Of a stretch of 64,000 bases of DNA, positions 3,683-64,000 are shown in pieces. The DNA comes from Lysobacterales bacterium. GTDB lineage: Bacteria > Pseudomonadota > Gammaproteobacteria > Xanthomonadales > SZUA-5. Position 1 is the first letter of the stretch. Each line of letters starts with the position of its first letter. The notes beneath the pieces were generated by a model that saw only the letters and a program-made list of their open reading frames with translations, made no database searches and was not told the DNA's origin. The stretch lies in assembly GCA_022844165.1 (NCBI GenBank), contig JALHMH010000010.1, forward strand, positions 58,357 to 122,356, in the 5' to 3' direction. The position numbers and the translations under genes are program-made.

Positions 3683-3687
3683 GACGT

Positions 3688-4009: not shown

Positions 4010-4022
4010 ACTGGACTCCGCG

Positions 4023-15120: not shown

Positions 15121-15990
15121 GTGAAAACGATTGCCCGTTGGGTCATTCGGACGATCGTATATGGTTATCTGTACCGCAAGAGGTGGACGATGCCCACTGC
15201 GGAAAAGTGGGCGGAGCGATTCAAGTCCTGGCCGGCATTTTTTGCGCAGTGGCCTTTCCTTAAACGCGCCCAGGTACATGGCGGTGCGCTTATGGAGCTT
15301 GGGTTGGTCGATGTCATTGAGCGCAACCTTCTGGTCACCGGTCATTGGGAAACGCATATTGAGAAGGCGCTTGAGAAATTGCTTCGCCCCGGCGATTGTT
15401 TCGTCGATGTCGGAAGCAATATCGGGCACTTCAGTTTATTGGCATCGCGCTTGGTGGGCGCTTCGGGTTGCGTGCTTGCCATCGAGCCCTGTTGGCAGAG
15501 TCTCGCAAAACTGGCGCGGCACCTTTCGCTGAACGCGGTTGAGAACGTGTACCTATTGGCTTGCGCAAGCGGGGCAGCTGTTGGCGACGGTGGTATTGCC
15601 TTCCTGACAGGCAACAATGCTGGCGCGGCGACGATGCGTGACACCGCCGTCGGCCAGGGGCGCCAACGGGTATTGATCGAACCGTTAGACGACTGCTTAG
15701 AGGGCCATGGAATTCGGCCGAACTTGGTCAAGATCGATGTCGAAGGGTTCGAGCTTAAAGCGCTTCGTGGTTTGCAACGCTGCCTCGCGCGCGACCGGCC
15801 CATCGTGCTGCTGGAACTGACACCTGGGTTCTTGCAGCAAGCTGGCGATAATGCCCAGCAGTTGTTGCGGTTCATGGCGGGACACGGCTATCGCTGCGAG
15901 TCGCTCCTTGATGAGCGCCGCATTGAACCCGGCGAATCGGGATTAGAGCAGCTGGGTCAGATCGACGTGGTTTTTCTGCCGGCTCATTGA
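15121..15990 (+). CDS. FkbM-family methyltransferase, 289 aa
   Basis: CFVDVGSNIGHFSL and [16 protein letters not shown] motifs. Confidence 0.8.
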   Translation: MKTIARWVIRTIVYGYLYRKRWTMPTAEKWAERFKSWPAFFAQWPFLKRAQVHGGALMELGLVDVIERNLLVTGHWETHIEKALEKLLRPGDCFVDVGSNIGHFSLLASRLVGASGCVLAIEPCWQSLAKLARHLSLNAVENVYLLACASGAAVGDGGIAFLTGNNAGAATMRDTAVGQGRQRVLIEPLDDCLEGHGIRPNLVKIDVEGFELKALRGLQRCLARDRPIVLLELTPGFLQQAGDNAQQLLRFMAGHGYRCESLLDERRIEPGESGLEQLGQIDVVFLPAH

Positions 15991-27383: not shown

Positions 27384-27936
27384 GCGCCTGTACGCGACGC
27401 TCGAATGGTGGCGCATCGCCAGGTGTCGTCTGCGCACCCATCTATGGCGTTTGCGAGGTGGGAGCGAGATTCACGGCAAGTGTCTGATCGATGGCGGCGT
27501 GAGAATCGAGCGGCCGTGGTTGGTCAGGCTTGGGCCGCGGTGTGTACTGCAGCGCGATGTGTGGTTAAACACGACCGGAGACCATGCGCGGATTGAGATT
27601 GGCGCTTTTGGCTTTGTCGGACGCGGTGTCCAGTTCGAAGTCAGTAACGCAATCGTCATTGGTCGGGGCGTTCTCATCGCGCCCGGCGTGTATCTGACCG
27701 ATCACAATCACAGCACCGCGCCCGGCCCGCCGATGTTCGAGCAGGCTTGCACCGCGGCACCCATTGCCATTGGCGACGATGTGTGGATCGGGGCAAACGC
27801 GGTGGTGCTGCCGGGCGTCACCATTGGTGCCGGTGCAGTGGTGGCGGCGGGTGCCGTCGTGCATCGCGATGTGCCGCCAAGGGCGATCGTCGGCGGCGTG
27901 CCGGCGCGAATCATCCGATTTCGAGAGGACGCATGA
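27373..27936 (+). CDS. Left-handed beta-helix (hexapeptide) O-acetyltransferase, 187 aa
   Basis: Hexapeptide repeats [13 protein letters not shown] and [31 protein letters not shown], followed by [10 protein letters not shown]. Confidence 0.8.
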
Positions 27937-28796
27937 ATCACAACAAGTTGCGAGCGGTTTGTTGGCTCAATCGCTTCGGCGTGCTGCCGAGGGTCCGACG
28001 CGCATTTGCGCGAACGCCGCCCGGCACCTTGGTCGATCGTGAGTTGTTTGGTCTGACGCAAGTGCTCGATATCGGCCGCAGCGATGCTCAACAGCTGCTG
28101 TTCGTCGAAGGCGAGCGCTTCATCGAGGAGCGCCATTTGCTGCGCCGGCTGTTGCGCCCCGGCATGACGGTCGTCGATGTCGGCGCCAACATCGGTTACT
28201 ACCTGCTATTGGCCAAACAGATCTGCGGTGCTGATGCGCGCGTCATCTGCATTGAGCCATCGCAAGAGAATCTGCCGGAACTGAAGGAGACCATTGAGCG
28301 CAATCGTATGCGCGACGTCATCGTACACGAAGTGGCGCTCGGCGATCGCGATGGCGAGATCGGATTGCGCTCCGGGATCAACAGCGGCGTCGTCGAAGGC
28401 GGCGGCGAGTACCGGGTTCCTGTGCGGCGCTTGGATGAACTGATCGAAGAGCGAGTGGATTTCATCAAGATCGATGTGGAAGGTTTCGAGGGGCAGGTGC
28501 TGCTTGGCGCCGTCGAGTTGCTGAAACGCTGGCGCCCGCTGTTGTTCCTGGAATTGCATCCCTTGGGGACCGGCCGCTTTGGACACAGTTGTCGCGCGAT
28601 TTTGGATCGTCTGCGTGAGATCTACTCAACGATCGAGCTGTATCACAAACACCCCACCCAGGGACCGCTCGACAAGGTACTGCTGCGGTACGGGTTGAGG
28701 GCCCCGGTTGTGCCGGTCATGGATGCTGATGACTATGTAGCCCGGCATGATGCGAGCGCTGCGTTCCACACCTACTGGGCCGTCTGCCGGCCATGA
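27933..28796 (+). CDS. FkbM-family methyltransferase, 287 aa
   Basis: ATGA overlap. [13 protein letters not shown] and [16 protein letters not shown] motifs. Confidence 0.8.
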
Positions 28797-38436: not shown

Positions 38437-39276
38437 ATGAATTCCGGACTTTCTATGGCAGGCGAAGTTGCGCGCATCGATTTTGTGATTCCGTTTCGAG
38501 CGCGCACGACAACGACGAATTGGAGGCGAGCTTGCCAGCTGCTCACCGATACGCTGCGTTCCGTCGAGAACTCGTCGGACGCTCGATGGCGTGCGATCGT
38601 CGTCTGCCATGACGAGCCAATCGGCATCCCTTCGGACCGGCAAGTTCTTGTCGTTCGCGCGCCATTCGAACCTCCAGGGCCGGATTCGCAGAATCTTGCA
38701 ACGAAGCGGCGGCTCTTTGTCTGGGAGACGGATAAGGGGCGTAAGCAGTTGGCGGGCGTTGATTTGGTACGTCGTTCTGGGTCAAAGTACTTTATGCTGC
38801 TGGATGCCGATGACCTTATTTCCTCGCGGCTGGTCGAATGGTGTCTGGCGCGCGATCATCCTGCGGGTTACTTCATCGACGAGGGCTATCGATTGGATGA
38901 CACGAATCGCGATCGCCTCTACTTTCGTCGCCGGTTTTTCCAAGAGTGCGGAAGCAGCTCAATACTGCGAACAACGGTGGCGCCGTTCCCGGCGAAGCTT
39001 GACTACACGCTGGATCTCAATGACAAGTTCACCCGCCGCTACGTCGTTCACGCCTACATTCCGGAAGCCATGGCGGCGTTGGGGCAGCCGATGGAACGAG
39101 TGCCTTTTCCCGCGGCCGTGTATCGATTTCACGATCAGAACATCTTCGCCAACTCAGCCCGAAAAAAAGAATCCTGGCTCAGGCGCCAATTTCGGAATCT
39201 GCTCCGTGGCAGGCTACTTGACTGCCGGCTTCGATCTGAGTTCAGCATCCCCGATGCGCGTGGCCAGGGCGAATAA
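38437..39276 (+). CDS. Putative GT-A-fold glycosyltransferase, 279 aa
   Basis: IDFVIPFRART..., YFMLLDADDLIS (DxD). Same strand and same locus. The family is not firmly recognised. Confidence 0.5.
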   Translation: MNSGLSMAGEVARIDFVIPFRARTTTTNWRRACQLLTDTLRSVENSSDARWRAIVVCHDEPIGIPSDRQVLVVRAPFEPPGPDSQNLATKRRLFVWETDKGRKQLAGVDLVRRSGSKYFMLLDADDLISSRLVEWCLARDHPAGYFIDEGYRLDDTNRDRLYFRRRFFQECGSSSILRTTVAPFPAKLDYTLDLNDKFTRRYVVHAYIPEAMAALGQPMERVPFPAAVYRFHDQNIFANSARKKESWLRRQFRNLLRGRLLDCRLRSEFSIPDARGQGE

Positions 39277-39302: not shown

Positions 39303-40703
39303 ATGGCATTGTGGGGACTGTTGGGGTTGATTGTCGCCAGCGTGTTTGCCACATTCGCGAAATGGCGACTGGCGATACCTGGTGCCATCCTTGTCGTGGC
39401 CTTGCAAGATCCGGTCCGTAAGTTGACACCGGGCACACCCGGATGGATGACACTGCTGGTCGTTCCCTTGGTTGTCGCTGGCCTGATGGCAATGTTCGCA
39501 ACAGTGCCTGACGTCTGGCGCCGGTTCGCGCGCAATAATCCGAAGATCGCCCAAATGCTTGCGCTCCTCGTGTTGTTATCGATTCCATCGATCATCATTT
39601 CCCTGACCTTCGGACCTGGGAGCTGGCAGTTCACTTTCTTAGGCGTGTTTTCCTACTCGATCATTTTTCTATCTGTACTACTTGGCTACTTTTATGCGCG
39701 AGATATCGAAACAGCGCTCAACCTGTTGGCGACCTATTGCCTGATACATGGGGTCGTACTGATCGGTGCTTTGGTCGAATATTTGGATCTTTGGCCAGGC
39801 GCACAGATCATTGGTTCCCATGCACTAGGCTACGAGTGGATTCGTTGGATCCCCGGTTACACCGTGGAGATGATCTCTGGCTTTTACCGAAGCTCCGATG
39901 TCATGGGCTGGCACGCCGCCATGGTCTGTATGTTGTCGGTCACACTAGCCATAGCAAAGTCTGGCAAAGCCCGTTTTTTCTGGGTTCTCGTGAGTGCCTG
40001 GGCCGTACTTGCTCTGCTGCTTTGCGGCCGCCGTAAAATGGTTTACATGCTGCCGATCTTTATTCTCGTTCTGACCTGGATTTACTTCTCTGCAGGTCGA
40101 GCTTCGCGAGTATTGCCTATGATCGGCTTTTTGATCGTGCCGGCGGCATCGGTGTTGGTGACCAGCGATATGTTGGGCGAGAACACGGCGAACATCCGCT
40201 ACTACACGTCGGCGAATGAGGGCGATAGCACCCTTGATCGCCTCCAGTCGCACGGGTTGGGCGAGATTCTTGAAACCTACCGGCAAATGGGCTTTTTCGG
40301 CGCAGGACTTGGTTTCGGTACGCCAGGCTCGCATCACATTAACGCCAATCGGCCCAGGGTGTGGCAAGAAAGCGGTCCCGGTCGCGTGATGGCGGAACTC
40401 GGAGTGCCGGGTTTCTTGTGCTTTCTCGCCACTTTGGCGGCCATCGGGGTTGTGATGTGGCGAGTGACCCGAACCTGGTTGATTGCTCGTACCCGTGAGG
40501 GCGTTCTTTGCGCATGCCTGATGTCGGTCGCCGTGGCCAATCTCGGTAGCCTGACGATTTCCGGCCAGATTCTGGCGGACGTGTTTGTCGTTGTGTTTCT
40601 CGGATTTCTGGTCGGCCTGGTGCTGAGTTTTGGTCGGCGCGATCTTGTGGAGCTGGTTTTGCAGCGAAACCAGGGGCGCTCTTTGCCAGCCTTCGCCGAA
40701 TGA
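39303..40703 (+). CDS. O-antigen ligase/polymerase family (Wzy_C-type) integral membrane protein, 466 aa
   Basis: At least 10 hydrophobic segments. A periplasmic-loop pattern FGAGLGFGTPGSHHINAN...ELGVPGFLCFL resembles the Wzy_C/WaaL motif (G-x-G ... H-x-H-N ... E-x-G). Confidence 0.62.
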   Translation: MALWGLLGLIVASVFATFAKWRLAIPGAILVVALQDPVRKLTPGTPGWMTLLVVPLVVAGLMAMFATVPDVWRRFARNNPKIAQMLALLVLLSIPSIIISLTFGPGSWQFTFLGVFSYSIIFLSVLLGYFYARDIETALNLLATYCLIHGVVLIGALVEYLDLWPGAQIIGSHALGYEWIRWIPGYTVEMISGFYRSSDVMGWHAAMVCMLSVTLAIAKSGKARFFWVLVSAWAVLALLLCGRRKMVYMLPIFILVLTWIYFSAGRASRVLPMIGFLIVPAASVLVTSDMLGENTANIRYYTSANEGDSTLDRLQSHGLGEILETYRQMGFFGAGLGFGTPGSHHINANRPRVWQESGPGRVMAELGVPGFLCFLATLAAIGVVMWRVTRTWLIARTREGVLCACLMSVAVANLGSLTISGQILADVFVVVFLGFLVGLVLSFGRRDLVELVLQRNQGRSLPAFAE

Positions 40704-45375: not shown

Positions 45376-46446
45376 ATGTCGACGCTCTATCTAGTGTCGC
45401 TGGCGGGTGTGGTCTCGTTCATCACGACGGCGCTGTTAGTTCGCACCGCTCCAGTCATCGGCCTGTTGGATCATCCCATTGCCGATCGAAAATCCCATGA
45501 CGCGCCGACGCCAGTGGTGGGCGGGCTAGGGATTTTAGCTGGCCTGATTGTATTCCCGGCATTCGCCGGTGTGCTGGACAACGCGCAGTGGTTTTGGCTG
45601 CTCAGCGCTGCCGTGCTATTGGCGGCCATTGGTGTGGCAGATGATCGCTATGACCTCCGATGGTATTGGCGCATAGCGGCCCAGGTGTTGGCCGCGTTGC
45701 TCATCGCGATTCCAGGGCAGACATCGATTCAAAGCTTGGGCGCGAGTACCTATTTGTCGCTTGAATTAGGTAGTTGGGCGTTGCCGTTCACAATATTCGC
45801 GGTGGTCGGCGTGATCAACGCGACGAACATGATTGATGGCATGGATGGCTTGGCTGGGACCATGGCTTTGGTCTCGCTGCTTGCGATGGCGCTGATCGCA
45901 TCCGAACCTCAGCTGAGCCAGTTTTTGTGGGCGACCGTGGCGATGCTTCTTGCGTTCCTGGCCTTCAATCTCAGGCGACCGGGATTGCCCAGGGCTGCAT
46001 GCTTTTTGGGCAATAGCGGTAGTGCCATCGTTGGTTTGGTTCTGGCCTGGTCGGCAATTCGGTTGACGGCAAGCGGAGACCCCAGCCCGTCCATCGCGCC
46101 CTGGCTTGTTGCGCTGCCAATCCTCGATTGTCTGATTCAGATCGCACGCCGGCTGCTGAACCGTCGTTCGCCTTTTTCGGCGGATTCTGGTCATTTACAC
46201 CATTTGTTGACCAATCACGGATGGAGCGTGGGCGCGACGGTGGCTGTTCTGGTCGGGATGCACGTGGCGTTCGTGTGCGTTGGTATTGGGTTCGCCTACG
46301 CTGGCTCAGACGCGTTGTATCCGATTTCTGGGTTCATTTCGCTATTGCCGTTGTTGGGACTTGGGTACTGGGCGCTGAATCGACATCCGATGGCTGATGA
46401 TGCAATCAACCTGACGTTGGCCTCGGACCTCACGAGCCGCCGATAG
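45376..46446 (+). CDS. wecA: Undecaprenyl-phosphate HexNAc-1-phosphate transferase (WecA/MraY family), 356 aa
   Basis: AAAGGGGA Shine-Dalgarno before the ATG. Polytopic membrane protein with NATNMIDGMDGLAG and DDRYDL motifs. Confidence 0.85.
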   Translation: MSTLYLVSLAGVVSFITTALLVRTAPVIGLLDHPIADRKSHDAPTPVVGGLGILAGLIVFPAFAGVLDNAQWFWLLSAAVLLAAIGVADDRYDLRWYWRIAAQVLAALLIAIPGQTSIQSLGASTYLSLELGSWALPFTIFAVVGVINATNMIDGMDGLAGTMALVSLLAMALIASEPQLSQFLWATVAMLLAFLAFNLRRPGLPRAACFLGNSGSAIVGLVLAWSAIRLTASGDPSPSIAPWLVALPILDCLIQIARRLLNRRSPFSADSGHLHHLLTNHGWSVGATVAVLVGMHVAFVCVGIGFAYAGSDALYPISGFISLLPLLGLGYWALNRHPMADDAINLTLASDLTSRR

Positions 46447-46533
46447 CGAGTTTAATTTGTAACAACACGCAACAGTTGGCGTTATTCAGCGTTCAATTCA
46501 GTGGAGCGCTAACGTCGGAATTTCGGCATGTTG

Positions 46534-46562
46534 TTGACCCTTGCTGTGCGCAAGGCTAACCT
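46534..46562 (+). promoter_or_regulatory. Candidate sigma70 promoter for the giant secreted-protein gene
   Basis: TTGACC-N17-TAACCT in the AT-richer spacer after wecA. It is followed by GAGGGGA 8 nt before ATG 46594. Hexamer match only. Confidence 0.3.
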
Positions 46563-46593
46563 TGGCTTAGGTTTGTATGAGGGGATTCGGATC

Positions 46594-49500
46594 ATGGTTC
46601 GTTTGATCGCAGGATTGTTAGGTGCGACGGCTTGTGTGTTGTCTTCGTCGGCCGGCGCCCAGATCACAATTCAAGATGGCGCCGCACGGGTCCGGTATGG
46701 CGATCTGTCGGATGCGGCTTACCTGACTGCTGGCGTGCCGCAAACGGTGCTGAGCAAGGGTTTGATTCCGCATCTTGCCGGCAGTCAGTTTTCGTATCGG
46801 GTAGCGGGTGATACACGCGAGTTTTCGGTGGTCACGGACTCGCCAGATCAGCCAACGATTACCCCTCCTGGTCCGACCAACACGGCGTTGATTGAGTACG
46901 CGAGTACTGAGTCTGCGCTTCGAAATCTGTTCAACGTCGACATCCAGGACACCGTTGTCGAATCCGGCGCAACGATCACTTACACGCGGGTGGCAACATT
47001 CGAGAACGTCTCCGGGGTCTCGCAAACGCTCACGGTGATGGGCTACGCCGACGACGTGCTGAACTCCGGATTCAACAATGTCAGTGCGACGTTGCTGGTC
47101 CCCAGCAATTCTATCCAGCTGACCAAGGCCAGCTCTACGCTCAATTTCACCGGTGTTGGTGCAACCGCATTTGAGGTCACGGCGTTCCCCGATCTGATCG
47201 ATAGTCTGGAGGATGCTGGGATCACCAGTTTCCTCGACGGTGGATTGCCGTTTTTGCCAACCACCGCGCCGCCAACAAACCCCGGCGACTGGACCGGCGG
47301 TTTCGAGTGGCCCGCCCAGGTCGTAGCGATTGGCGGCACGGCTTCTTACACGATGATTTTTCAGCTAACGGCTGCACCCTTCGGTCCAGGCAGCGATGGC
47401 AGCCACATCGTCAATACCGCAGGAACCATCGTCAATGCGTATGCACCGCTGGATTCCGATCTCACCGCAGGCACGGATCGGCTGTTTGTTCCCGATGTCA
47501 GCGCGTTGACGCTGCCGGTGGCAGCGTGCACAGGCTGCGAGCGCACGCTGTCGAATGGCGATCTGCTGATGATCTATCAGCCACAGGGCGCGTCTATCGA
47601 TACGACGAACACGCTCAATTACGGCAATGTCACAGACTTGGGTGGTGCTGGCCGCTACGAGTTTGTTTACGTCGCCAACGTGATCGATTTCGCGGTCGGG
47701 CCAGATGAAATCGAGTTTTTCCCGTTCGATGGCACCTCTTCACCTGGGCCTGGAAATGGGTTCTCGAATCCTGTTTGCACTGGTCTGCGCTACGACTACA
47801 CGACGACGGCCAATGCGCCCGCGATGGTCGTGCGCGTGCCGCAGTATTCGTTCTTGCGCGTCGAGCCGGGCGCAAGTGTTGTCGCACAAGATTGGAACTG
47901 GGACGGTTCGAGCGCTGCCAGTTTGGGCGGTGTATTGGCGGTGGATGTCGGCGGTCAAACGCAGTCCACCGGCATTATTGAGCTGGGCGGTGCGATGAGC
48001 GCCGACGGTGCGGGATTCCGCGGTGGCAATGATCAGACCACAGGTGCGACGTCATTCACGGCCGACTTTGTGAGCGGCAGCAATGCGCACGGCGAAAAAG
48101 GCGAGAGCGTTGTTGGAACCTTTGCGGCCTACGATGCGTTAGGTGGGCGTTTTGCGCGTGGCGCTCCGGCCAACGGTGGTGGCGGCGCAAACGGAGTCAA
48201 CTCGTCGGGTGGGGGCGGTGCGAATGCCGGCGACCCGGCAGCCTGGACCAATGGTCATGGCGTCCTGGATCCGGCTTTTGCTCTGAATGCGTGGTTGTTA
48301 GACCCGGAAACCCGCGTTGGCCCAGGGCCTTTCACGGTTGCACCGGATAATAGTGGTGGCGGCCGCGGCGGTTACACCTGGTCGAATGCGAATCAGGATG
48401 CTTTGGTCGTCCCGCCTGGCGATCCATCGTGGGTGGGCGACAATCGCCGAGTGGTCGGCGGTCTCGGCGGGCGGCCGTTGAGTGGCGTCGTGGCAGGCGA
48501 TGCGTATCGGCGGGTGTACTTTGGCGGCGGTGGTGGCGCAGGCGAGGTGAACAATTTGAATCCGCGCCGAGGCGGTGATGGCGGTGGCTTCGTCTTTGTG
48601 CTTGCGCGCCGAATCGAGGCCTTTGGCCCAGTCAACCCCCGCATCAGTGCGAACGGAGCGAACGGACAAGGATCGACGGCGGCGCCTTTGGACGGCAATG
48701 GTGGCGGTGGCGGTGGTGGTTCGGTGGTTGTGACCACCTCCGAGAATCATCCGTTGCCGGCGACGCTGGAGATTCAAGCCAATGGCGGCGCAGGCGGTTC
48801 CCATGGCGTTGTGAACCCCAATGGTGAGGGCGAGGGCGGTGGCGGTGGCGGTGGCGCAGGCGTGGTTTTGGTATCGCATTCGAGTGCGATCGAATCGGTG
48901 GCGGGCGGCTTGCGCGGCGTGACGCTTTCAACATCACTCACAGAGTTCCCGGCAAACGGTGGTACGAGTGGAGCCGCGGGTGAGGAAGGCGCGGCACCCG
49001 ATCGCGACGGCCCGGCGTCGCCGTTGGTCTGCCTGACTGGCCCCGATTTTACAACCCCTGTGACAAACGCTTATTTCGAAGCGGAGCGATTGGACCGCAG
49101 CAAGATGCGAGTGCGTTTTGATTCTGCGTCGGAAGTGGCACACGCGGGCTTTTTCGTACTAGGCAGCCGCCGCGAACGATTGAGCGGGTTCATTGCTGCG
49201 AGCGGCAGAAGCGGCGCCGAAGCCAAAGCCTACGAAGTGGTGATCGACGATTTGGGTATCACGGAACTGTATCTGGCCGACATCGACGTACGTGGCAAGG
49301 AGACGATCCGCGGCCCCTTCGAAGTTGGCAAGCGTTTTGGTGCGGCGCCTACGGTGGTGCGCTACAACTGGAGCGAGGCACAGCAGCAACTGTCCAGCTA
49401 TCGAGCTGCCACTCGCGGTATGGCCAGCGGAATCGCGAAAATCGGAGTGCGCGAGCGCGGCATGGTGCGCGTAACGCATGAACAACTCATCGCCGCTGGC

Positions 49501-51531
49501 ATCGATCTGAGCGGCACGCCCGGCAGTCAGATCGCAGTCCGCACCGACACAGGGCCGGTACCGCGCCGTGTGCGAGGTGCAGCGCTGTTTGGCGTTGGCT
49601 CGTCGATCGAGTTTTTTGGCGACGCTAAAGCAACCTTGTGGAGCCAAGATCGCTTTTACCTGATTGAGGCCGATGCCAGCAGCGCAGTCGAGATGGGGTT
49701 GGTAACACGTGCAGTCAGTTCTGGCTCGACTTCGAACTACACCGCGGAACTGACCTACGCTCCGCAGAATGCTTACAACGAAGTATCGCCAATCGGCGAT
49801 CCCTGGTATGCGGATCGATTGGTTTCGCAGGGCGGTCTGGCCAGCAAGACAATCAGTTTAAGTGGCCCGGCATCCATTGGGAATGCCGAACTCGACGTAC
49901 TTGTCTGGGGCGGTATCGACTGGCCAAGCCGTGGCGACGATCATTCGATTCGCGTGCGACTCAATGGTCAACTGGTTGCGTCCGAACGGTTCGACGGTTT
50001 AGCCAGCAAACGTATTCGAGTGCCGGTGACGTTGAGCGGCACGAACCACCAGATCGTGATTGAGGCGCCGGGCGATACCGGCCAACCGGCAGATATCATC
50101 CATATCGAATCTGCAACCTTGCGCTACACGGCCGCAGCGAGTGGTAACGGCAGTACGTTCTTCGGGCAGGCGCTGCAAGGTACGCGCAGTGACACGATTT
50201 TCCAGGATCGTACAGGTGACGGAATGGACGCTCCGATTGCGGGCGTGATCACCGTCAATAACGTCTCTGGTGCGGATTTGCGTGCGTACCGCATTGTCGG
50301 CGGCAGTGCAACTGAGTATCAGGTGAGCGGCAGCCCAGTGGCCGTGTATGCCGAAGGGTTTTCGGATGCCGCAGAACTATGGGTTGGGCCAGCGGCACAA
50401 TTGCGTGCTCCGCAATCCATCAGCGTTGCACCCGCTGCAACCAGTTTGTTCGGCGCATCTGCCGATTGGCTGGCGATCACGCATGGCATGTTCAGCAATG
50501 CGCTGAACGACCTGGCAAGCCGTCGTCAGAGCCAGGGACTCAGTACGAAGATTGTCAATGTTGAAGCGATTTACACACGCTACAGCGCGGGCAACCCGAG
50601 TCCTGTGGCCATTCAGCGCTACATCAAAGACGCACGAGCTCAACTGGGTACGGATTACGTCGTGCTGGTCGGTGCCGACACGACGGATGCGCCCGGGTAC
50701 GAAAACTCCGGATCGATCAGTTTTGTGCCCACGCCGTACGCCACGACCAGTATCTTTGTCCGCTACGCGCCTGCCGATCCGCTGATGGGCGATATCAACG
50801 GCGATGGCATGGCCGAAGTGGCGGTGGGACGACTGCCGGTACGCACACTCGCCGAGGTACAAGAAGCGGTTCGCAAGATATTGGCGTACGAAAATCAACC
50901 AGCAGCAAACCAAATGACGTTGGCAGCAGGTCCTGAAGACACCAGCGCGGTTTACCAAAACACGTTCGCGGAATCGAGCGAAGCGCTGGCAGCTGGATTG
51001 CCAAACGCCTGGACCATCAGTCGGGTTTATCAAGACGTTCTGGGATTGAACCCCGCCCGTCAAGCGCTGGTCGACGCATTCAATGCGGGCCGTAGTGTTG
51101 TGTCTTACGTTGGTCACTCAGGCCCAAGTCAATGGACCTTTGATCCGATGTTCGATATCAGCCAGGTACAAGGCACCAGTAGCGATCCGAACCGGCCTAA
51201 CCTGGCAAGCAGCGTAAACCAGCCGATCGTGCTGCAGTTCGCCTGCTGGACAACGTACTTCGTGTCGCCGACAGCCAATACCATGGCGCAGGCGCTCATG
51301 TTGACGCCAAACAGGGGCGCCAGTGCGATCGTAGGTGCAACCGTGCTGCTGGATCAGGCTTCGCACGACGCCATGATGGTGGCTGTATCTGACCGTTTGG
51401 TAGCGGGCGCGCGAATTGGCGACGTGGTCAATGCTGCCAAAGCGGAATTGAAAGCCCGTCCAGGCGGCGCTGGACCCGAGATTCTATTGGGCCAGGTCAT
51501 CCTGGGCGATCCAGCACAGCCGATTCGCTGA
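46594..51531 (+). CDS. Giant secreted protein: signal peptide, unknown N-region, glycine-run-rich region, C-terminal peptidase C25 (gingipain/PorU-like) domain, 1645 aa
   Basis: Signal peptide MVRLIAGLLGATACVLSSSAGA-Q. Poly-Gly blocks lie at about 47920-48960 (GGGGANGVNSSGGGGANAG, YFGGGGGAG, GGDGGGFVFVLARRI, GNGGGGGGGSVVV, GEGEGGGGGGGAGVVLV). The C-terminus (from about 50460) has the C25-type pattern GRSVVSYVGHSGPSQW (His codon 51114-51116) and QPIVLQFACWTTYF (Cys codon 51244-51246). Confidence 0.8.
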   Translation: MVRLIAGLLGATACVLSSSAGAQITIQDGAARVRYGDLSDAAYLTAGVPQTVLSKGLIPHLAGSQFSYRVAGDTREFSVVTDSPDQPTITPPGPTNTALIEYASTESALRNLFNVDIQDTVVESGATITYTRVATFENVSGVSQTLTVMGYADDVLNSGFNNVSATLLVPSNSIQLTKASSTLNFTGVGATAFEVTAFPDLIDSLEDAGITSFLDGGLPFLPTTAPPTNPGDWTGGFEWPAQVVAIGGTASYTMIFQLTAAPFGPGSDGSHIVNTAGTIVNAYAPLDSDLTAGTDRLFVPDVSALTLPVAACTGCERTLSNGDLLMIYQPQGASIDTTNTLNYGNVTDLGGAGRYEFVYVANVIDFAVGPDEIEFFPFDGTSSPGPGNGFSNPVCTGLRYDYTTTANAPAMVVRVPQYSFLRVEPGASVVAQDWNWDGSSAASLGGVLAVDVGGQTQSTGIIELGGAMSADGAGFRGGNDQTTGATSFTADFVSGSNAHGEKGESVVGTFAAYDALGGRFARGAPANGGGGANGVNSSGGGGANAGDPAAWTNGHGVLDPAFALNAWLLDPETRVGPGPFTVAPDNSGGGRGGYTWSNANQDALVVPPGDPSWVGDNRRVVGGLGGRPLSGVVAGDAYRRVYFGGGGGAGEVNNLNPRRGGDGGGFVFVLARRIEAFGPVNPRISANGANGQGSTAAPLDGNGGGGGGGSVVVTTSENHPLPATLEIQANGGAGGSHGVVNPNGEGEGGGGGGGAGVVLVSHSSAIESVAGGLRGVTLSTSLTEFPANGGTSGAAGEEGAAPDRDGPASPLVCLTGPDFTTPVTNAYFEAERLDRSKMRVRFDSASEVAHAGFFVLGSRRERLSGFIAASGRSGAEAKAYEVVIDDLGITELYLADIDVRGKETIRGPFEVGKRFGAAPTVVRYNWSEAQQQLSSYRAATRGMASGIAKIGVRERGMVRVTHEQLIAAGIDLSGTPGSQIAVRTDTGPVPRRVRGAALFGVGSSIEFFGDAKATLWSQDRFYLIEADASSAVEMGLVTRAVSSGSTSNYTAELTYAPQNAYNEVSPIGDPWYADRLVSQGGLASKTISLSGPASIGNAELDVLVWGGIDWPSRGDDHSIRVRLNGQLVASERFDGLASKRIRVPVTLSGTNHQIVIEAPGDTGQPADIIHIESATLRYTAAASGNGSTFFGQALQGTRSDTIFQDRTGDGMDAPIAGVITVNNVSGADLRAYRIVGGSATEYQVSGSPVAVYAEGFSDAAELWVGPAAQLRAPQSISVAPAATSLFGASADWLAITHGMFSNALNDLASRRQSQGLSTKIVNVEAIYTRYSAGNPSPVAIQRYIKDARAQLGTDYVVLVGADTTDAPGYENSGSISFVPTPYATTSIFVRYAPADPLMGDINGDGMAEVAVGRLPVRTLAEVQEAVRKILAYENQPAANQMTLAAGPEDTSAVYQNTFAESSEALAAGLPNAWTISRVYQDVLGLNPARQALVDAFNAGRSVVSYVGHSGPSQWTFDPMFDISQVQGTSSDPNRPNLASSVNQPIVLQFACWTTYFVSPTANTMAQALMLTPNRGASAIVGATVLLDQASHDAMMVAVSDRLVAGARIGDVVNAAKAELKARPGGAGPEILLGQVILGDPAQPIR

Positions 51532-51555
51532 CCGAATACGCTCAACCATTGCTCA

Positions 51556-51590
51556 CCGACGCCCGGCATCGCCGGGCGTCGGCGTTTTGG
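51556..51590 (+). terminator. Rho-independent terminator of the giant gene
   Basis: CCGACGCCCGGC-ATC-GCCGGGCGTCGG gives a perfect 12-bp GC stem with a 3-nt loop, followed by CGTTTTGG. It starts 25 nt after the stop. Confidence 0.8.
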
Positions 51591-51625
51591 GGCATAGTTC
51601 GGCCTTCGATGGCGCCGAATTTGCG

Positions 51626-52393
51626 ATGGGAACAATGCTCGACCGCTTGAAGCGAGCCTATGCGCGCAGAAACAACGCAGCTTTTTGGCGATGGAAGCTG
51701 GCGCAATGGACTGGTTCTCCGACCGCGGCTGTCTCGAATCCGTTGGCCGCTTACCCACTGATCGTGCGCACCCGAACGACGGACTGGTCTGTTTACCAGC
51801 AGATCTTCGAAGAGGTTGAGTATCAATGCCTACCTGGTGACTTGAGTCCAGTCGTGATCGTCGACCTTGGCGCCAATGTTGGGTACTCCTCTGCCTATTT
51901 CCTGACCAGGTACCCGGCCTGTTCCGTGATTGCCGTTGAGCCGGATGCGGACAATTTCGCCGCAATGGAACGGAACCTTCGCGCCTATGGTGCGCGGGTT
52001 CAAACGCTTCTGGCGGCGGCCTGGTCGTCGCCAGGGCGTCTGGCGTTGCGCACAGACGCATTCCGGGGTGGCGGCGCCTGGGCTCGACAAGTTCAGGCGG
52101 ACAACGATGGAAAAATCGAAGCGATCGATATTGACGCGCTGATGCAGCGCTATCGGTTGCCGAAGATCTCAATACTGAAAATGGACATCGAAGGCGCCGA
52201 GGTTGAGGTCTTCAAAGGGTCGTTGGACTGGCTCGATCGCGTTGACGTGCTAGTGGCAGAACTGCACGACGACAGTAGCTTCGGACCCGCAAGTCCGACG
52301 GTCATCCCGGAGATGCACCGGCGTGGGTTTCGGTCCTGGACTCACGGCGAGTTGATCGTATTTCGTCGCCCCAAGGTCAGCGATAGCCGTTAG
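51626..52393 (+). CDS. FkbM-family methyltransferase (fourth copy, stand-alone), 255 aa
   Basis: VIVDLGANVGYSSAYF and ILKMDIEGAEVEVFKG motifs. The start is placed after the terminator, because the track start at 51587 lies inside the terminator U-tract. Confidence 0.75.
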   Translation: MGTMLDRLKRAYARRNNAAFWRWKLAQWTGSPTAAVSNPLAAYPLIVRTRTTDWSVYQQIFEEVEYQCLPGDLSPVVIVDLGANVGYSSAYFLTRYPACSVIAVEPDADNFAAMERNLRAYGARVQTLLAAAWSSPGRLALRTDAFRGGGAWARQVQADNDGKIEAIDIDALMQRYRLPKISILKMDIEGAEVEVFKGSLDWLDRVDVLVAELHDDSSFGPASPTVIPEMHRRGFRSWTHGELIVFRRPKVSDSR

Positions 52394-52544: not shown

Positions 52545-53640
52545 ATGGAAACCAGCCCACTCGCCGCCAAACTTGTTGACCTGCGCCAGCGTGTTGAAGC
52601 GCTCAGGGGGTTTCTTTGACTTCGAGAACAAAAAGGACCGCCTTGACGAAGTCAGCCGGGAACTTGAAGACCCGTTGATTTGGAACAACCCGGAGAAGGC
52701 CCAGGAGTTGGGTCGCGAGCGCGCCCGCTTAGAGTCGACGGTCCGTGAGCTCACTGAGTTGCTGCAAGGCGCGACAGATGGTCAAGAATTGCTGCAAATG
52801 ATCATTGCCGAAGACGATGCTGTTTCATTCAGGCAGCTCGAAGCCGATGCGCTCAGCCTGGAGGTGCGGATCGCGCGCATCGAGTTTCAACGCATGTTTG
52901 GCAATCCAATGGATCCAAATCCGGCCTATGTCGACATTCAGGCTGGCGCTGGCGGTACCGAAGCGCAAGATTGGGCCGAAATGCTGCTGCGCATGTACCT
53001 GCGTTGGTGCGAGCGCAAAGGGTTCAAGACCGAACTCCTGGAAGTGAGCGCTGGCGACGTGGCTGGGATCAAGAGCGCGAGCCTGCGTGTCGAAGGCGAC
53101 TATGCGTTCGGCTGGCTGCGCACCGAGATCGGCGTGCATCGACTGGTGCGCATTTCGCCATTTGATTCCAACAAGCGGCGCCACACGTCGTTCGCGTCGG
53201 TGTTCGTGGCGCCCGAAGTCGACGACAACATCGAGATCGATATCAATCCGGCGGATCTGAAAACCGACGTGTATCGATCCAGCGGCGCAGGCGGGCAGCA
53301 CGTCAACAAGACCGAGTCCGCCGTGCGCATCACGCATGTGCCGAGCGGCGTAGTGGTGGCCTGTCAGACCGAGCGCAGCCAGCACAACAACCGCGACCGA
53401 GCGATGAAGATGCTCAAAGCCAAGCTCTACGAGATCGAAGTTCAGAAGCGTAACGCCGAGAAGGACCGACTCGAAGCGACCAAATCGGACATCGGCTGGG
53501 GCCACCAGATTCGCTCGTATGTGCTTGACGATGCACGGATCAAAGACCTGCGTACCGGCGTCGAGCGTCGCGATACGCAGACGGTGCTTGACGGCGATCT
53601 CGACGACTACGTTGAAGCAAGCTTGAAGCAGGGGCTCTGA
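52545..53640 (+). CDS. prfB: Peptide chain release factor 2, expressed by programmed +1 frameshift: join(52545..52616,52618..53640), 364 aa
   Basis: Frame 0 reads [24 protein letters not shown] then TGA. The +1 frame continues [12 protein letters not shown]... with the RF2 SPF motif (RISPFDS) and GGQ (SGAGGQHVN). The first 52 residues of track ORF 52462.. are spurious. Confidence 0.93.
52605..52620 (+). promoter_or_regulatory. prfB +1 frameshift site (internal SD + CTT TGA C slippery/stop)
   Basis: AGGGGG TTT CTT TGA C, compared with the E. coli paradigm AGGGGG TAT CTT TGA C. Confidence 0.9.
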
Positions 53641-55643: not shown

Positions 55644-58600
55644 CTAATGGGTGTCCGCAGAATCGCGCGTCCGCAGAATCGCGCGCGGTGCAAGCGCCGT
55701 ATATCGTCGCAGCCAGGCCTGCTGCCAGTTGAAGACGGTCAGCAACAGCGCGGGCAAAAATACCAACGTAACGATGGTCGAGTACACGAGACCGAAGAGC
55801 ACCACGGAACCGAGGCCGCGATAAAGCTCGGTGCCGGCGCCCGGAATCAGCACCAGCGGGGCCAGACCACAAACGGTTGTCAGCGTAGACATCAAGATCG
55901 GTCGCAGGCGCGAGGCAACCGCACCGTGCACCGCATCTGCCGCGCTTTCAGCGCCCTCGGCCAGGCGTTGGTAGGTCTCGTCGACGATCAGGATCGGATT
56001 GTTGACGACTGTGCCAAGCAACACCAGAAATCCGAGCAGTGTGATCATGTCGAGAGGTTGCGAGATTGCGGCCAAACCGATCAGCGGCAGCGCACCGCCG
56101 ACAGCGTTCAGCAGCTGCAGCCCAAGAATGCCGCCTGCAACGCCGAGTGGTACGGTGGCCATGACCAACAGCGGCCGTCCCCAATGGCGGAAGACCGCCA
56201 CGAGCAGCAGATAGCACAACAACACGGCCAACGCGAAGTTTCCAGCGACCGCAGCTCGAGTGGCTTCCAACTGATCGCTGGCTCCGGAGAAAGCCATGGA
56301 AACGCCTTGCGGGATCTCGCCAGCGCGGCGCATCGCCTCGACCAGCTCGCTGCGCACACGTTCGACGCCAGCTTGTAGCGCTACGCTGCGCGGCGGCACG
56401 ATGCTGATCGTCACGGTACGCTGGCCATCGATCCGCCGCACGTTTTCGGTGTCAGCCGTTTCCACCAGATCGGCCAGAGCGCCGATCGGCAGCACGTTCC
56501 CGTTCGGCGTCGCCAGCGGCAGATCGCGCAGGCGTTCGAGTTGCTGGGCGGCGTCGGTGTTGCCATAGAGGAAGATGTCGACTTTGTCGTCGCCGACGAT
56601 CAATTCGTCGACAAACGCACCGTCGCTGAGGGCGGCCACCGAGTAGCCGAAGCTTCCGGCGTCGAAGCCAACCTCGGCCAGGCGCTCCCAGCGCGGGTGC
56701 AGTTCCACCAGGGGTTGATTCAGGTTCAGCGTGGCCGGTTCAGAGGCGACACGCGCACCCTCGAACATGCTCTCTGCGCGGCGCAGCACACGCGCGCCGA
56801 CCTCGAACAGTTGCTGCAGATCGGTTCCAGCGATATCGAGGTTGATGCTCCGCGAACCGCCGTCGTTACTGGAGATGATCGAGCCGCGCGCGGAGAACGC
56901 GCGCATGCCGGGGAAGGCACGAAAACGCGCATCGAGGGCATCCATCAGCGCATCGATGTGTGCGGGATCCTTGGGTTCGCCGATCATGCGCAAGCCACCG
57001 GGGCTGACGCTCAAATTGTAGTAGGCAAGTGCCGGCATATCGGTCTCGCCGCGTGCGAAGCGCTCCGGCGGATCCTGCAAGTGCGGTTTCAGGTCATCCA
57101 TGATTTGCCACGCGATGGCCGTCATTTCGGTCAGGTTGTATCCCGGCGGCGCGATCATCCGCGAGAACGTCTTCGGCTCCTCGCCCTCCGGCAAATACTC
57201 CGCCGACGGCGTCAGAAACAGCACCACCGCAGCCGTCGTCAAAACGGTACCGAGCAACACGCCTGTGCGCCGGGACGCAGTGCAATGCAATGTCGCCAGC
57301 GACGCACCGACGCGCGCAAACCACGCTGCACCCGGCGCTTTGGACTGCTCAGAGATTCCCAGGCCACGATGTCCTACCATCGTCGGGACAACGTACAACG
57401 CGACCGCCATGGACGCCAAAATCGACGCCGAAATCGCAATCGCGATGTCCGAATAGAGTTGTCCGGCTTCCTCCACGATGAAAAGAATCGGCGCGAACAC
57501 GAGCATCGTGGTCATGGTCGACGCCAACACCGCCGCCCAGACGCGACGCACGCCGGCAACCGCGGCTGGAAAGCGCGCCAGACCTCGGCGCCGCGCCTGA
57601 TCGATACTCTCAAGCACCACAATCGTATTGTCGACAGTCATGCCGATCGCAAAAGCAACGCCAGCGAGCGAAATCACATTCAAGGTGCGCCCGGCGAGCA
57701 ACAAGCCGACGAATGCCGCTACCGTGCAGATCGGGATGGCAATGACGCCGGTGAGCGTGGCCCGGCCCGAGCGCAAGAACAGATACATCATCAGCGTCGC
57801 GAGGACCGCGCCCAGCGCCAGATTGCTCCAGACGTTGGCAACCGAATCTTCAACATAGCGCACGTCATCGGAACTGACGATCACCTCCAATCCCAGCGCT
57901 GCCAACTGATCGCGATTGACCGCGTCGATCGCAGGGAGCAACGCGCGCTTGGTGGCGATGACATTCGACCCTGGCGTGCGTTGAATCGATAGCGACAGTG
58001 CAGGCTGCCCATTGTAGAAACTCACCTCGCGCCGTTCGTAGTGATCCAGGCGGACCTGCGCCACATCGGACAGGCGCACCAGCGTGCCGCCGCGTTCGGC
58101 CACGATCAGCGAGCGGATGTCGTCAAGATCGTCGAACCGCCCCACGGTGCGTAGCAAGTAACGACGCTTGCCGCTGTCCAGATCGCCGCCGGAACTGTCG
58201 CGATTGCGCGCACGCAAAGCATCACGCAGTTGCGTCAAGCGCAAGCCGCGCTCGGCGAGCAGCGTGGGATCGACCTCGATACGCACTTGCCGTTCAGGGC
58301 CACCGCCGACGTTGACGCGGGCCACGCCCGCGACACGCTCCAGGCGCGGCCGCACGTAGCGTTCCAGATGGTCGCGCAACATGTCGAGATCCAACTCGAT
58401 GGGGCTGTCGGCGCGCGGAGCGACACGCAAGTGCATAAACGCGTTGTCGGAGAATGAACTGGCCGACAGGCTCGGCTCGTCGACGTTCTCCGGATAACCC
58501 GAAACCTGGCTCAATGCGTTACTGGTTTGAATGAGCGCCTGGTTGATATCAACGCCAAAAGGAAATTCAAGTCGGATCGTGGCCCGACCAGTGCTTGCGC

Positions 58601-58844
58601 CGGACACCATGCGCTTCAGGTTCGGCAAGGTGCGCAAGAACTGCTCTTGCTCCAGCAGGATCTCCTGCTCGACATCCTGCGGCGTAGCGCCTGGCCAATG
58701 GGTATCGACACTGATCGTGCGCACGTCCAAGTCGGGGATCATCTGCACCGGCACGCGCAATGCGGCGCTGGTGCCGAGCAGCATCAGGATGAGCACGGCC
58801 ACGGAGATCAGTGCGCCCTGGCGCAGCAATGTCTCGAAGTTCAT
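55644..58844 (-). CDS. RND efflux transporter permease (AcrB/HAE-type), 1066 aa
   Basis: Twelve-TM, two-large-loop architecture, with MNFETLLRQGALISVAVLILMLLG...VPVQMIPDLD at the N-terminus. ATGA overlap with the upstream adaptor gene. Confidence 0.92.
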   Translation of the reverse strand: MNFETLLRQGALISVAVLILMLLGTSAALRVPVQMIPDLDVRTISVDTHWPGATPQDVEQEILLEQEQFLRTLPNLKRMVSGASTGRATIRLEFPFGVDINQALIQTSNALSQVSGYPENVDEPSLSASSFSDNAFMHLRVAPRADSPIELDLDMLRDHLERYVRPRLERVAGVARVNVGGGPERQVRIEVDPTLLAERGLRLTQLRDALRARNRDSSGGDLDSGKRRYLLRTVGRFDDLDDIRSLIVAERGGTLVRLSDVAQVRLDHYERREVSFYNGQPALSLSIQRTPGSNVIATKRALLPAIDAVNRDQLAALGLEVIVSSDDVRYVEDSVANVWSNLALGAVLATLMMYLFLRSGRATLTGVIAIPICTVAAFVGLLLAGRTLNVISLAGVAFAIGMTVDNTIVVLESIDQARRRGLARFPAAVAGVRRVWAAVLASTMTTMLVFAPILFIVEEAGQLYSDIAIAISASILASMAVALYVVPTMVGHRGLGISEQSKAPGAAWFARVGASLATLHCTASRRTGVLLGTVLTTAAVVLFLTPSAEYLPEGEEPKTFSRMIAPPGYNLTEMTAIAWQIMDDLKPHLQDPPERFARGETDMPALAYYNLSVSPGGLRMIGEPKDPAHIDALMDALDARFRAFPGMRAFSARGSIISSNDGGSRSINLDIAGTDLQQLFEVGARVLRRAESMFEGARVASEPATLNLNQPLVELHPRWERLAEVGFDAGSFGYSVAALSDGAFVDELIVGDDKVDIFLYGNTDAAQQLERLRDLPLATPNGNVLPIGALADLVETADTENVRRIDGQRTVTISIVPPRSVALQAGVERVRSELVEAMRRAGEIPQGVSMAFSGASDQLEATRAAVAGNFALAVLLCYLLLVAVFRHWGRPLLVMATVPLGVAGGILGLQLLNAVGGALPLIGLAAISQPLDMITLLGFLVLLGTVVNNPILIVDETYQRLAEGAESAADAVHGAVASRLRPILMSTLTTVCGLAPLVLIPGAGTELYRGLGSVVLFGLVYSTIVTLVFLPALLLTVFNWQQAWLRRYTALAPRAILRTRDSADTH

Positions 58845-59899
58845 GGCGTCGGCTCGACGATCACCGCATCCCCGTCGCGCAGCTGCTCATTACCGCGAAT
58901 CACAACGCGCTCAGCTCCGCTCAAGCCCGATTCGATCGCCACGCGCTGACCCTGGCCTTCCCGGATGCGCACGCTGCGCAAGCGAGCAATCGAGAGATCG
59001 CCCTGAGTCTCAACAACGAACAGGCTGTAGCCACCGTCTGGCTGACGGAGCAGAGCATCGCGCGGGACCGCCAACGCCGCGGCCGTAGCCGGCAGCGAAA
59101 TTTCGGCACGCGCCGAAGTGCCCGGAATCAACAGCGCGTCTTTGTTGTCGACCGCCAGGCGCAGCAAGAACGTACGCGCATTCGCTTCGCTGACCGGCAC
59201 CTTGGCGACCACCCGCGCCGGCAATTCAACGCCCGGCATCGCATCGGGGAGCACCGTCGCACTAAACGCGCCGAGTAAATCGGCATGTCGCTCCTGCGGT
59301 ACGCGCACGTCGAGCCATACCGAATCAAGCGCCACCAGGCGCAACAGGGCATTTCCTCGCGACGCCCACTGCCCAACCTCGGTCATGCGCTCGGCGATCA
59401 CGCCAGCAAACGGTGCCGGCAACGTGTGCCGATCGAGTAGCGCCATTTGCTCCGCCTGCGCGGCGCGCGCCGAGGCAAGCGCCGCCAGTGCGAGCTGCTC
59501 GGCTGCGCGAAGCGTGTCCACTTGACTGGTCGGAATGAACTTGCGTTCGGCCAGCGTTTCGCCCTCGCGCAATCGCCGGCTCGCCTCGCTGGCTGCGGCG
59601 GCGGTCTCGGCCGTCGCCGCCGCCGCACGGGCGAGCGTCTGGCGTGCGACGGTTGTGTCCAGTTTCAGCAGCGTTTGCCCAGCCCTCACCCGATCTCCCG
59701 TGTCGACATCGATCGAGGCCACCAGCCCGTCGACGCGCGGCGACAGCTCCGCTGCACGTTCCGCGGTCAGCGTGCCGGTCAACGAGAAGCGTTCGCCGAA
59801 GCTCGCCGTTTCCGGCGTGGCAACACTCACTCGTGCGACCGGGTTGGCAGGCGATGATGAGGCGACGCCGGCCAAAATCAAAGCGGCAAACAAACGCAT
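58841..59899 (-). CDS. RND efflux periplasmic adaptor (membrane fusion protein), 352 aa
   Basis: Signal-like N-terminus MRLFAALILAGVASS. Coiled-coil hairpin (AAATAETAAAASEASRRL...), then beta-barrel/MP domains. The start is chosen at Met76 of track ORF 58841..60124, whose first 75 residues are Arg/Cys-rich. Confidence 0.85.
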   Translation of the reverse strand: MRLFAALILAGVASSSPANPVARVSVATPETASFGERFSLTGTLTAERAAELSPRVDGLVASIDVDTGDRVRAGQTLLKLDTTVARQTLARAAAATAETAAAASEASRRLREGETLAERKFIPTSQVDTLRAAEQLALAALASARAAQAEQMALLDRHTLPAPFAGVIAERMTEVGQWASRGNALLRLVALDSVWLDVRVPQERHADLLGAFSATVLPDAMPGVELPARVVAKVPVSEANARTFLLRLAVDNKDALLIPGTSARAEISLPATAAALAVPRDALLRQPDGGYSLFVVETQGDLSIARLRSVRIREGQGQRVAIESGLSGAERVVIRGNEQLRDGDAVIVEPTP

Positions 59900-60257
59900 G
59901 CATAGAGGCTCGTCAGCGGTTTGCCCGACGATACACAAGGCGGATACGGACGCGGTGAAGAACGTATGCCTGGCGAGGCTTCGCCTCAGACTGCCGAGCA
60001 TTGTGGGCTTCGCCAGACACCGTACTTGCCACAACCCCCATCGAGCGCTGCGCGCATTTCCGGCCCGGCGGCACAGCCGCCGATCGTTCGGCTCGGCACA
60101 CGCCTTGCGGCGTGTCAGCGCCAATCCTCACCCCCCTTTGTACTCAAGGGGGTTTCAACAGGCAAAGCCGCTCCGACGAAAACTCGATTCAAATGGCAAG
60201 ATCCCGCTCAGTCAGGGACTTTAGCTTACGATGGTCCGACTTCGTCGACCACAGGAA

Positions 60258-62517: not shown

Positions 62518-64000
<1,483 letters not shown>

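Follow-up and report, generated by a model that had tools for sequence, protein, structure and literature searches.

A predicted exported protein of Lysobacterales joins a glycine-rich head to a PorU-type peptidase C25 module and is encoded at the end of a glycan locus

Background

Does the cleave-and-attach chemistry of PorU exist outside the Bacteroidota type IX secretion system (T9SS)? To our knowledge, PorU is the only characterised transpeptidase of peptidase family C25, and it is regarded as specific to that secretion system. PorU acts both as a signal peptidase and, being a transpeptidase of the sortase type, in joining cargo to anionic lipopolysaccharide (A-LPS) (PMC11285876). The linking sugar of this system requires Wbp enzymes together with an AsnB-type amidotransferase, and such glycan genes were also reported to be associated with other sortase-encoding genes (PMC7468200). 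The question is raised by a conserved PorU-like module in Gammaproteobacteria, described here for a protein of 1645 amino acids (aa) from a Lysobacterales bacterium (assembly GCA_022844165.1). Its gene is located on contig JALHMH010000010.1 within a stretch of 64,000 nt (positions 58,357 to 122,356 of the forward strand), from here on called the window, to which all window coordinates refer. The recurrent placement of this gene and its relatives beside genes that initiate undecaprenyl-phosphate (Und-P)-dependent glycans sharpens the question. If the protein were a sortase, this would mean covalent protein-to-lipopolysaccharide (LPS) anchoring outside Bacteroidota. If it is only a secreted protease, the outcome is a routine but correct upgrade of the annotation from "hypothetical" or "C25 peptidase".

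Database copies of the protein are unnamed or "hypothetical", and the exact copy (P0001) has no name. The fusion of a glycine-rich head with a PorU-like module is uncharacterised and rare, and a literature search of limited reach found nothing relevant on the head/C25 fusion, on CLIPPER together with C25, on AgmC, or on C25 peptidases in Lysobacter or Xanthomonadales. A first-pass annotation, made from the letters of the DNA and a list of its open reading frames (ORFs), had described a secreted C25 protein with glycine runs next to an LPS-type locus. Here we analysed its domains, relatives and gene neighbourhoods. We consider it slightly better than an even bet that the protein is an exported, catalytically competent cysteine peptidase with an adhesin head.

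Results and discussion

Domain architecture

The protein would be a Sec-exported envelope or surface protein built from four modules, namely a signal peptide, an optional module of 240 aa, a head of ~550 aa and a PorU-type module of ~820 aa. The 1645-aa reading frame with its signal peptide, as previously annotated, was confirmed. The elements of the gene, all on the plus strand, are:

46594-51531, plus: whole gene of the 1645-aa predicted exported multidomain protein, stop codon included (from the ORF list)
46594-46659, plus: Sec type-I signal peptide, aa 1-22, cleavage predicted between AGA and Q (inspection)
46660-47379, plus: lineage-specific N-module, aa 23-262 (alignment; no family match)
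47380-49041, plus: Gly-rich head, aa 263-816 (sub-threshold NCBIfam AgmC_N match, homologue search, AlphaFold)
48700-48720, plus: (GGTGGC)3.5 tract encoding the G7 run of aa 703-709 (Tandem Repeats Finder; Gly-run map)
48835-48862 (also given as 48835-48856), plus: (GGCGGT)3.7 tract encoding the G7 run of aa 748-754 (Tandem Repeats Finder; Gly-run map)
49057-50463, plus: PorU-like N-terminal beta-sandwich region, aa ~822-1290 (profile alignment; AlphaFold all-beta model with a predicted local distance difference test score, pLDDT, of ~90; Foldseek)
50470-51516, plus: peptidase C25 catalytic domain, aa 1293-1641 (Pfam PF01364; Foldseek match to RgpB)
51115-51117, plus: codon of the catalytic His1508 in YVGHSG, aa 1505-1510 (invariant in 34/34 aligned sequences)
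51244-51246, plus: codon of the catalytic Cys1551 in QFACWT, aa 1548-1553 (invariant in the family; sole Cys of the C25 domain)

The PorU-type module

The protein is a member of peptidase family C25 by profile, catalytic dyad and fold. The Pfam model Peptidase_C25 was matched with E 2.9e-61 and 208.2 bits (cut-off 23) over profile positions 2-371 of 374. The likeness to PorU reaches beyond the catalytic domain: a profile of 34 relatives matched PorU (6za2) over its residues 12-790 with E 6e-58, whereas the same profile matched RgpB over the catalytic domain only (E 8.8e-35). An AlphaFold2 model of aa 801-1645 was predicted with a pLDDT of 90 and a predicted template modelling score (pTM) of 0.90. 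In a Foldseek search with this model, PorU 6za2 ranked first in the PDB (E 4.5e-28 over 828 columns), ahead of RgpB and Kgp; template modelling scores normalised to the target were 0.65-0.67 for RgpB (E ~1e-18) and 0.60 for Kgp. The earlier description of a C-terminal C25 domain with PorU affinity was correct as to its presence and too narrow in extent. The entire C-terminal ~820 aa is a PorU-type module that ends right after the catalytic domain, without Ig-like domains or a T9SS C-terminal domain (CTD). The terminal residues LGDPAQPIR form the last strand of the catalytic domain, and Pfam detected neither a CTD nor any other C-terminal tail behind them, in line with the first-pass annotation.

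His1508 and Cys1551, which had been proposed as the dyad from their motif context, align with the catalytic residues of both reference enzymes. His1508 corresponds to the histidine of YAGHGG in PorU and of YTGHG in RgpB (His211, counted from the alignment), and Cys1551 to the cysteine of TATCD in PorU and of VACVN in RgpB, which we take to be Cys690 and Cys244, respectively. Asp1449 occupies the position of the PorU Asp and adjoins that of RgpB Glu152. Overlay on known structures had been suggested as well; by fold, the predicted model matched PorU 6za2 and RgpB, and the dyad was matched by profile alignment. Residues H1508, C1551 and D1449 are invariant across the head-bearing family, while among 34 more distant C25 proteins the His is invariant and the Cys is conserved in at least 90%. 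Since His1508, Cys1551 and Asp1449 are kept at 38% identity and in head-less paralogues, the positions appear to be under selection for catalysis.

PorU, the C-terminal signal peptidase and sortase of the Porphyromonas gingivalis T9SS, likewise consists of N-terminal beta-sandwich domains followed by a C25 domain. It shares with the window protein the motif GH(G/S)GP..W, the catalytic C, the Asp and the end strand GDP..R, but identity between the two is only 16-17%. The window protein has nothing past the catalytic domain, while PorU has a retained CTD (A1054-Q1158; PMC11285876). Unlike PorU, it carries an extra N-terminal extension of ~800 aa, made up of the N-module and the Gly-rich head, and its host is a gammaproteobacterium and not a member of Bacteroidota. 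The NCBIfam PorU model (NF033707) scored 118.7 bits at aa 1014-1641 against a cut-off of 420, and a PorU2-related model reached 92 bits against 450. No ORF scanned in the window matched a Por component, and no partner of the attachment complex was seen there. With a score below the cut-off, no CTD, a host outside the known range and no partners in view, the window protein is not a PorU equivalog.

The gingipains RgpB and Kgp (1cvr, 4ief, 4rbm) share the catalytic fold, and the dyad aligns with RgpB His211 and Cys244. Unlike them, the window protein lacks the Ig-like domain, the haemagglutinin/adhesin region and the CTD, and its non-catalytic domains are PorU-like. The gingipain prodomain Propeptide_C25 (PF08126) was not detected by Pfam. 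Having neither prodomain nor CTD, the protein is not a gingipain. In a tentative reading of the profile alignment, the column of the RgpB pocket residue Asp163 appears to hold no conserved acid.

Signal peptide and N-module

The N-terminus, MVRLIAGLLGATACVLSSSAGA followed by Q, reads as a Sec type-I signal; the assignment was made by inspection and by comparison with homologues. All family members have signal peptides, with AxA sites directly ahead of a conserved (N/V)PGEDG motif, and the short members without the N-module begin at PGEDG immediately after the signal peptide. The sequence GATAC within the signal peptide could be read as a lipoprotein signal; this was rejected because its Cys is not conserved and the homologues have AxA type-I sites.

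The first-pass annotation had left about 450 aa behind the signal peptide as a region without a recognisable motif. This region is shorter, as only aa 23-262 are unmatched and the conserved head starts at aa 263. The N-module was found in the window protein and two relatives (P0002 and P0005) only, had no Pfam or NCBIfam match, and was modelled by AlphaFold with a pLDDT mostly <50.

The glycine-rich head

The head consists of a beta-rich first part and a second part rich in Gly runs, with three units of a G-run and a beta-strand. All Gly motifs previously quoted, as well as YVGHSG and QFACWT, were located as described: GGGGANG at aa 528-534, GGGGGAG at 644-650, GGDGGGFVFV at 660-669, GNGGGGGGGSVVV at 701-713, GGAGGSHG at 731-738 and GEGEGGGGGGGAG at 744-756. 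The two underlying hexanucleotide tracts were likewise recovered, although an extent of 48823-48870 for the second was too generous. Glycine makes up 27% of aa 523-775, compared with 13% of the whole protein. The Gly pattern is more than a product of chance: of the 48 columns that are invariant across 60 homologues, 32 are Gly, and a search of 1.84 billion cluster representatives gave 2299 homologues of the head at E<=1e-3.

At E<=1e-30, 494 cluster representatives matched query positions ~3-535 of 538. In these homologues the head nearly always occupies residues ~20-550 of large proteins; in hundreds of other bacteria it makes up the mature N-terminus of large adhesin-like ones. Among the sampled proteins, the part behind the head is built from cadherin, Big, PKD, DUF11 or TSP3 repeats and T9SS CHU_C tails, and in none of them is the head itself covered by a Pfam model. 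The one partial family match was the NCBIfam model gliding_AgmC_N (NF047640), whose family we take to be myxobacterial and named for gliding, with 116.7 bits at aa 263-547 against a cut-off of 275. By sequence, the head is homologous to the AgmC N-terminal family without being an AgmC equivalog. The adhesin-like proteins with the homologous head (Bacteroidota CHU_C/T9SS cargo and the AgmC_N family; 35-51% identity, E down to 1e-84) differ from the window protein in two respects. Their head directly follows the signal peptide, whereas here the 240-aa module is inserted before it; and after the head they continue with repeats and often a CHU_C tail, whereas here the PorU-like peptidase follows.

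Previously, the Gly region had been likened to Gly_rich domains. The resemblance to Gly_rich and ALK/LTK presumably lies in a pattern common to both, in which short hydrophobic strands come after runs of 4-7 Gly. The assignment was not upheld: Pfam Gly_rich (PF12810) did not match the window protein at E<=1, the head profile returned low-complexity noise only from PDB sequences, with no ALK or LTK match, and Foldseek found nothing in the PDB at E<0.1. The AlphaFold model of the head has a pLDDT mostly >90 for aa 266-816, and its Gly-run part is almost devoid of helix or strand according to DSSP. Polyglycine-II (PGII)-type packing of this part is possible, as a confident model that is rich in DSSP coil would fit it. 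With more than 2000 cluster representatives, the head family is very large; Pfam has no model for it, and no neighbour with a solved structure was found.

A single structural neighbour of the head model was significant, a protein with a PA14 domain from Bathycoccus sp. RCC716 virus 1 (BFVD A0A7S6NY19, E 8.6e-16), which suggests, at the level of predicted models, that the head family may also be present in a giant algal virus.

The glycan locus of the window

The gene is situated at the end of an ABC-transporter-type glycan locus of ~45 kb, which extends from ~1.3 to 46.4 kb of the window and whose last gene is WecA-like; the placement next to wecA and a 45-kb glycan locus in the first-pass annotation was accurate. 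The immediate neighbours are:

45376-46446, plus: WecA-like undecaprenyl-phosphate N-acetylhexosamine-1-phosphate transferase, upstream (Pfam Glycos_transf_4, E 1.6e-35; TIGR02380, 184 bits, below its cut-off)
51587-52393, plus: FkbM-family methyltransferase, downstream (Pfam Methyltransf_21, TIGR01444; start codon uncertain)

The locus encodes Wzm, Wzt with a Wzt_C domain, a TviB-like UDP-GlcNAc 6-dehydrogenase, Gmd, GalE, several epimerases, ~13 glycosyltransferases, a polysaccharide deacetylase and an acyltransferase besides the WecA-like enzyme. Two AsnB genes are of the WbpS/eps_aminotran_1 type, classical glutamine-dependent enzymes that start with MCGI. Three FkbM methyltransferase genes lie within the locus and the fourth just beyond the C25 gene, where it is followed by prfB and lysS. 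An FkbM methyltransferase gene also adjoins the orthologues in loci L010, L007 and L025.

Gene neighbourhoods in relatives

Full-length relatives are few, and every genome-derived one stems from a metagenome-assembled genome of Lysobacterales/Xanthomonadales; such a genome often carries two or three paralogues. In a neighbour-joining tree of the C25 domains, the head-bearing proteins formed three clades, with head-less paralogues as the outgroup. The following counts refer to ~24 distinct loci from fragmentary metagenome-assembled genomes of these three clades, uncorrected for kinship, and were obtained in part with tblastn and a crude ORF caller.

A WecA-like gene was present within ~5 kb in 9 of the ~24 loci (the window, L010, L007, L025, L015, L026, L016, L006 and L036). 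All three clades are represented, and the gene is placed either downstream or upstream, in the latter case on the same or the opposite strand. Glycan genes occur on both sides of the C25 gene in four or five loci (the window, L010, L007, L025, L015).

Directly adjacent to the C25 gene, 9 loci have an Asn-synthase-like gene (L003, L008, L016, L017, L021, L006, L024/L018, L038 and L039), for example:

L003, 5085-6782: Asn-synthase-like gene
L008, 5198-6922: Asn-synthase-like gene
L016, 430-2190: Asn-synthase-like gene
L024, 2395-4266: Asn-synthase-like gene
L038, 175-1614: Asn-synthase-like gene

These genes are divergent and lack the glutaminase Cys2. Their products match PF00733 only, have no MCG glutaminase start, and gave lasso cyclase and asn_synth_AEB as their best sub-threshold NCBIfam models. 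A divergent neighbour of this kind was not found in the window by tblastn. In L006, positions 1-4754 hold a lasso-peptide-type set (Asn_synthase, PqqD, Transglut_core3, NTP_transf_5) directly upstream of two C25 genes. An explanation of the Asn-synthase-like neighbours as parts of lasso-peptide clusters fits only this locus, as the others lack PqqD and Transglut_core3.

Head-less C25 paralogues are next door in 6 loci, including:

L026, 15112-19194 and 19910-23938: head-less C25 paralogues
L012, 14384-20740: head-less C25 paralogue
L013, 14637-24200: head-less C25 paralogue
L006, 5022-9179: head-less C25 paralogue

They retain the PorU-like C-terminal module and differ in their N-terminal parts, which consist, e.g., of DUF11/'CLIPPER' repeats; in L026, up to three C25 genes follow each other.

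Two further candidates for a conserved partner were discarded. A conserved upstream neighbour of ~550 aa in five loci is prfC, a housekeeping synteny anchor, and the ORFs of 574 and 582 aa without a match upstream in L032 and L034 are neither divergent Asn-synthase-like genes nor related to each other. Loci L018 and L024 lie at a contig start and a contig end of one metagenome-assembled genome and look like the halves of a single head-C25 gene: the end of L024 covers aa 265-359 and the start of L018 aa 319-1645, with the assembler apparently breaking inside the Gly-rich region.

Function and alternative explanations

As an exported peptidase with an adhesin head, the protein would be an endopeptidase in which His1508 serves as the general base for the attack of Cys1551 on a peptide bond, leading to an acyl-enzyme. 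The head would putatively bind a surface or a polymer. Because a CTD, a beta-barrel and a lipobox are all lacking, export past the periplasm would take a route other than the T9SS, most plausibly type II secretion. The activity would be tied to a cell-surface glycan, given the recurrent placement beside or inside Und-P-dependent glycan gene sets. Several observations weigh against this account. No secretion-system genes are present in the window, and about one third of the loci have no WecA-like, glycan or Asn-synthase-like neighbour. The expectation that orthologues co-localise with glycan loci therefore held in part, and the linkage is a tendency, not a rule. Moreover, the WecA-like gene of L006 and L016 belongs to a conserved WecA-purF pair and may be a housekeeping copy. 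That the C25 fold is only a scaffold or anchor in a non-catalytic structural adhesin, i.e. a pseudo-peptidase, appears scarcely credible to us. The adhesin-type N-terminal head and the lack of a prodomain or latency element recognised by Pfam would suit it, but His1508, Cys1551 and Asp1449 show no change in relatives as distant as 38% identity or in the alignment of head-less paralogues.

A serious contender, though in itself unlikely, is a PorU-style sortase that works independently of the T9SS. The C25 module would then cut either a partner protein or its own chain somewhere between head and enzyme, and the acyl-enzyme would be resolved by an amine on an undecaprenyl-diphosphate (Und-PP)-linked or LPS-type glycan begun by the WecA-like enzyme, so that the protein, or just the head, would be held covalently on the surface glycan. 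The protein is nearer to PorU than to the gingipains and has the non-catalytic N-terminal domains of PorU, which itself attaches cargo to A-LPS (PMC11285876) through a linking sugar that needs Wbp and AsnB-type enzymes (PMC7468200). WecA-like and Asn-synthase-like genes recur beside the family in three clades, and the window contributes the TviB-like dehydrogenase, the two WbpS/eps_aminotran_1-like AsnB genes and the polysaccharide deacetylase. The same head is found on CHU_C-tailed T9SS cargo, with the PorU-like module here in place of repeats and tail, and the paralogues swap their N-terminal passenger, such as DUF11 repeats, before a constant PorU-like module. On the other side, PorV, PorQ or PorZ-like partners and CTD-bearing substrates were not seen among the scanned ORFs of the window, and the NCBIfam PorU score is far below its cut-off. 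The Asn-synthase-like neighbours have no glutaminase Cys2, are missing from the window and, in L006, form part of a lasso-peptide-type cluster. The loci without linkage also count against a sortase, and a place at the margin of an O-antigen locus can result from hitch-hiking in a variable region. A more specific version, a self-contained proteobacterial "adhesin plus sortase", we regard as distinctly improbable; in it, the PorU-like module would cut its own chain or a partner and pass the head onto an amine of the Und-PP/O-antigen-type glycan begun by the WecA-like enzyme, maybe after tailoring of this glycan by the Asn-synthase-like enzymes as amide ligases.

Low probability is also given to a common secreted protease, digestive or lytic, of a predatory or saprophytic member of Lysobacterales, in which the head would bind substrate or prey and the glycan neighbourhood would be the coincidence of a variable surface-gene region. 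The intact dyad and the signal peptide agree with it, as does the small, patchy and paralogue-rich family with two or three copies per genome, typical of accessory exoproteins. In several loci the neighbours are unrelated, among them prfC, ankyrin, a TonB receptor and a BatA-D/MoxR-type operon. However, each of the three clades has WecA-like or glycan genes beside the family, in varied arrangements, far above the expectation for a random gene by a rough estimate that assumes one to three such genes per genome, and the gingipain propeptide family PF08126 was not detected.

Gene boundaries and further observations

From its first ATG, the ORF spans 46528-51531 on the plus strand and encodes 1667 aa. 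The 1645-aa form starts at ATG 46594, with GAGGGG at 46579-46584, 9 nt upstream, in agreement with the N-termini of the homologues. A candidate promoter of its own had been assigned to the gene; this was not borne out, as a scan of 46300-51800 returned 0 sigma-70-like sites. The strong terminator described in the first pass was substantiated:

51556-51592, plus: hairpin resembling an intrinsic terminator (12-bp GC stem, loop of 3 nt), with CGUUUUGGGG behind it

The hairpin itself (51556-51582) begins 25 nt past the stop codon, and a 69-nt segment folds with -33.8 kcal/mol (z = -4.1). A consensus terminator scan overlooked it, its T run being only 4. No Rfam elements were found around the C25 gene.

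Within the glycan locus, the transporter and FkbM set includes the coordinates 4794-7003 and 7058-8773 (Wzm, Wzt) as well as 15121-15990, 27747-28796 and 51587-52393. Wzm, Wzt with Wzt_C and four FkbM methyltransferases correspond to the make-up of an ABC-transporter-dependent O-antigen pathway with a methylated chain terminator. Between an epimerase gene and the Wzm/Wzt genes lies a PIN-domain ORF (3935-4654, plus strand, E 7.9e-15), possibly a mobile insertion or what is left of a toxin-antitoxin system. Two plus-strand ORFs of 279 and 466 aa (38437-39276 and 39303-40703) belong to no Pfam or NCBIfam family. At the equivalent position, the locus of an 80%-identical relative (L001, 2073-4306) has two family-less genes of 281 and 463 aa, a likeness by size and place only.

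Downstream, prfB (52546-53640, plus strand) starts with ATG 52546 and contains the canonical programmed +1 frameshift site, AGGGGG TTT CTT TGA C at ~52603-52621; beyond it, the +1 frame encodes the RF2 domains (PCRF, RF-1). Further on, a resistance-nodulation-division (RND) efflux pair, consisting of an AcrB-like and a membrane-fusion protein, is encoded on the minus strand at 55644-60124. A NirS-type cytochrome cd1 nitrite reductase gene (62518-63993, minus strand, E 5.6e-150) suggests that the host may be able to reduce nitrite.

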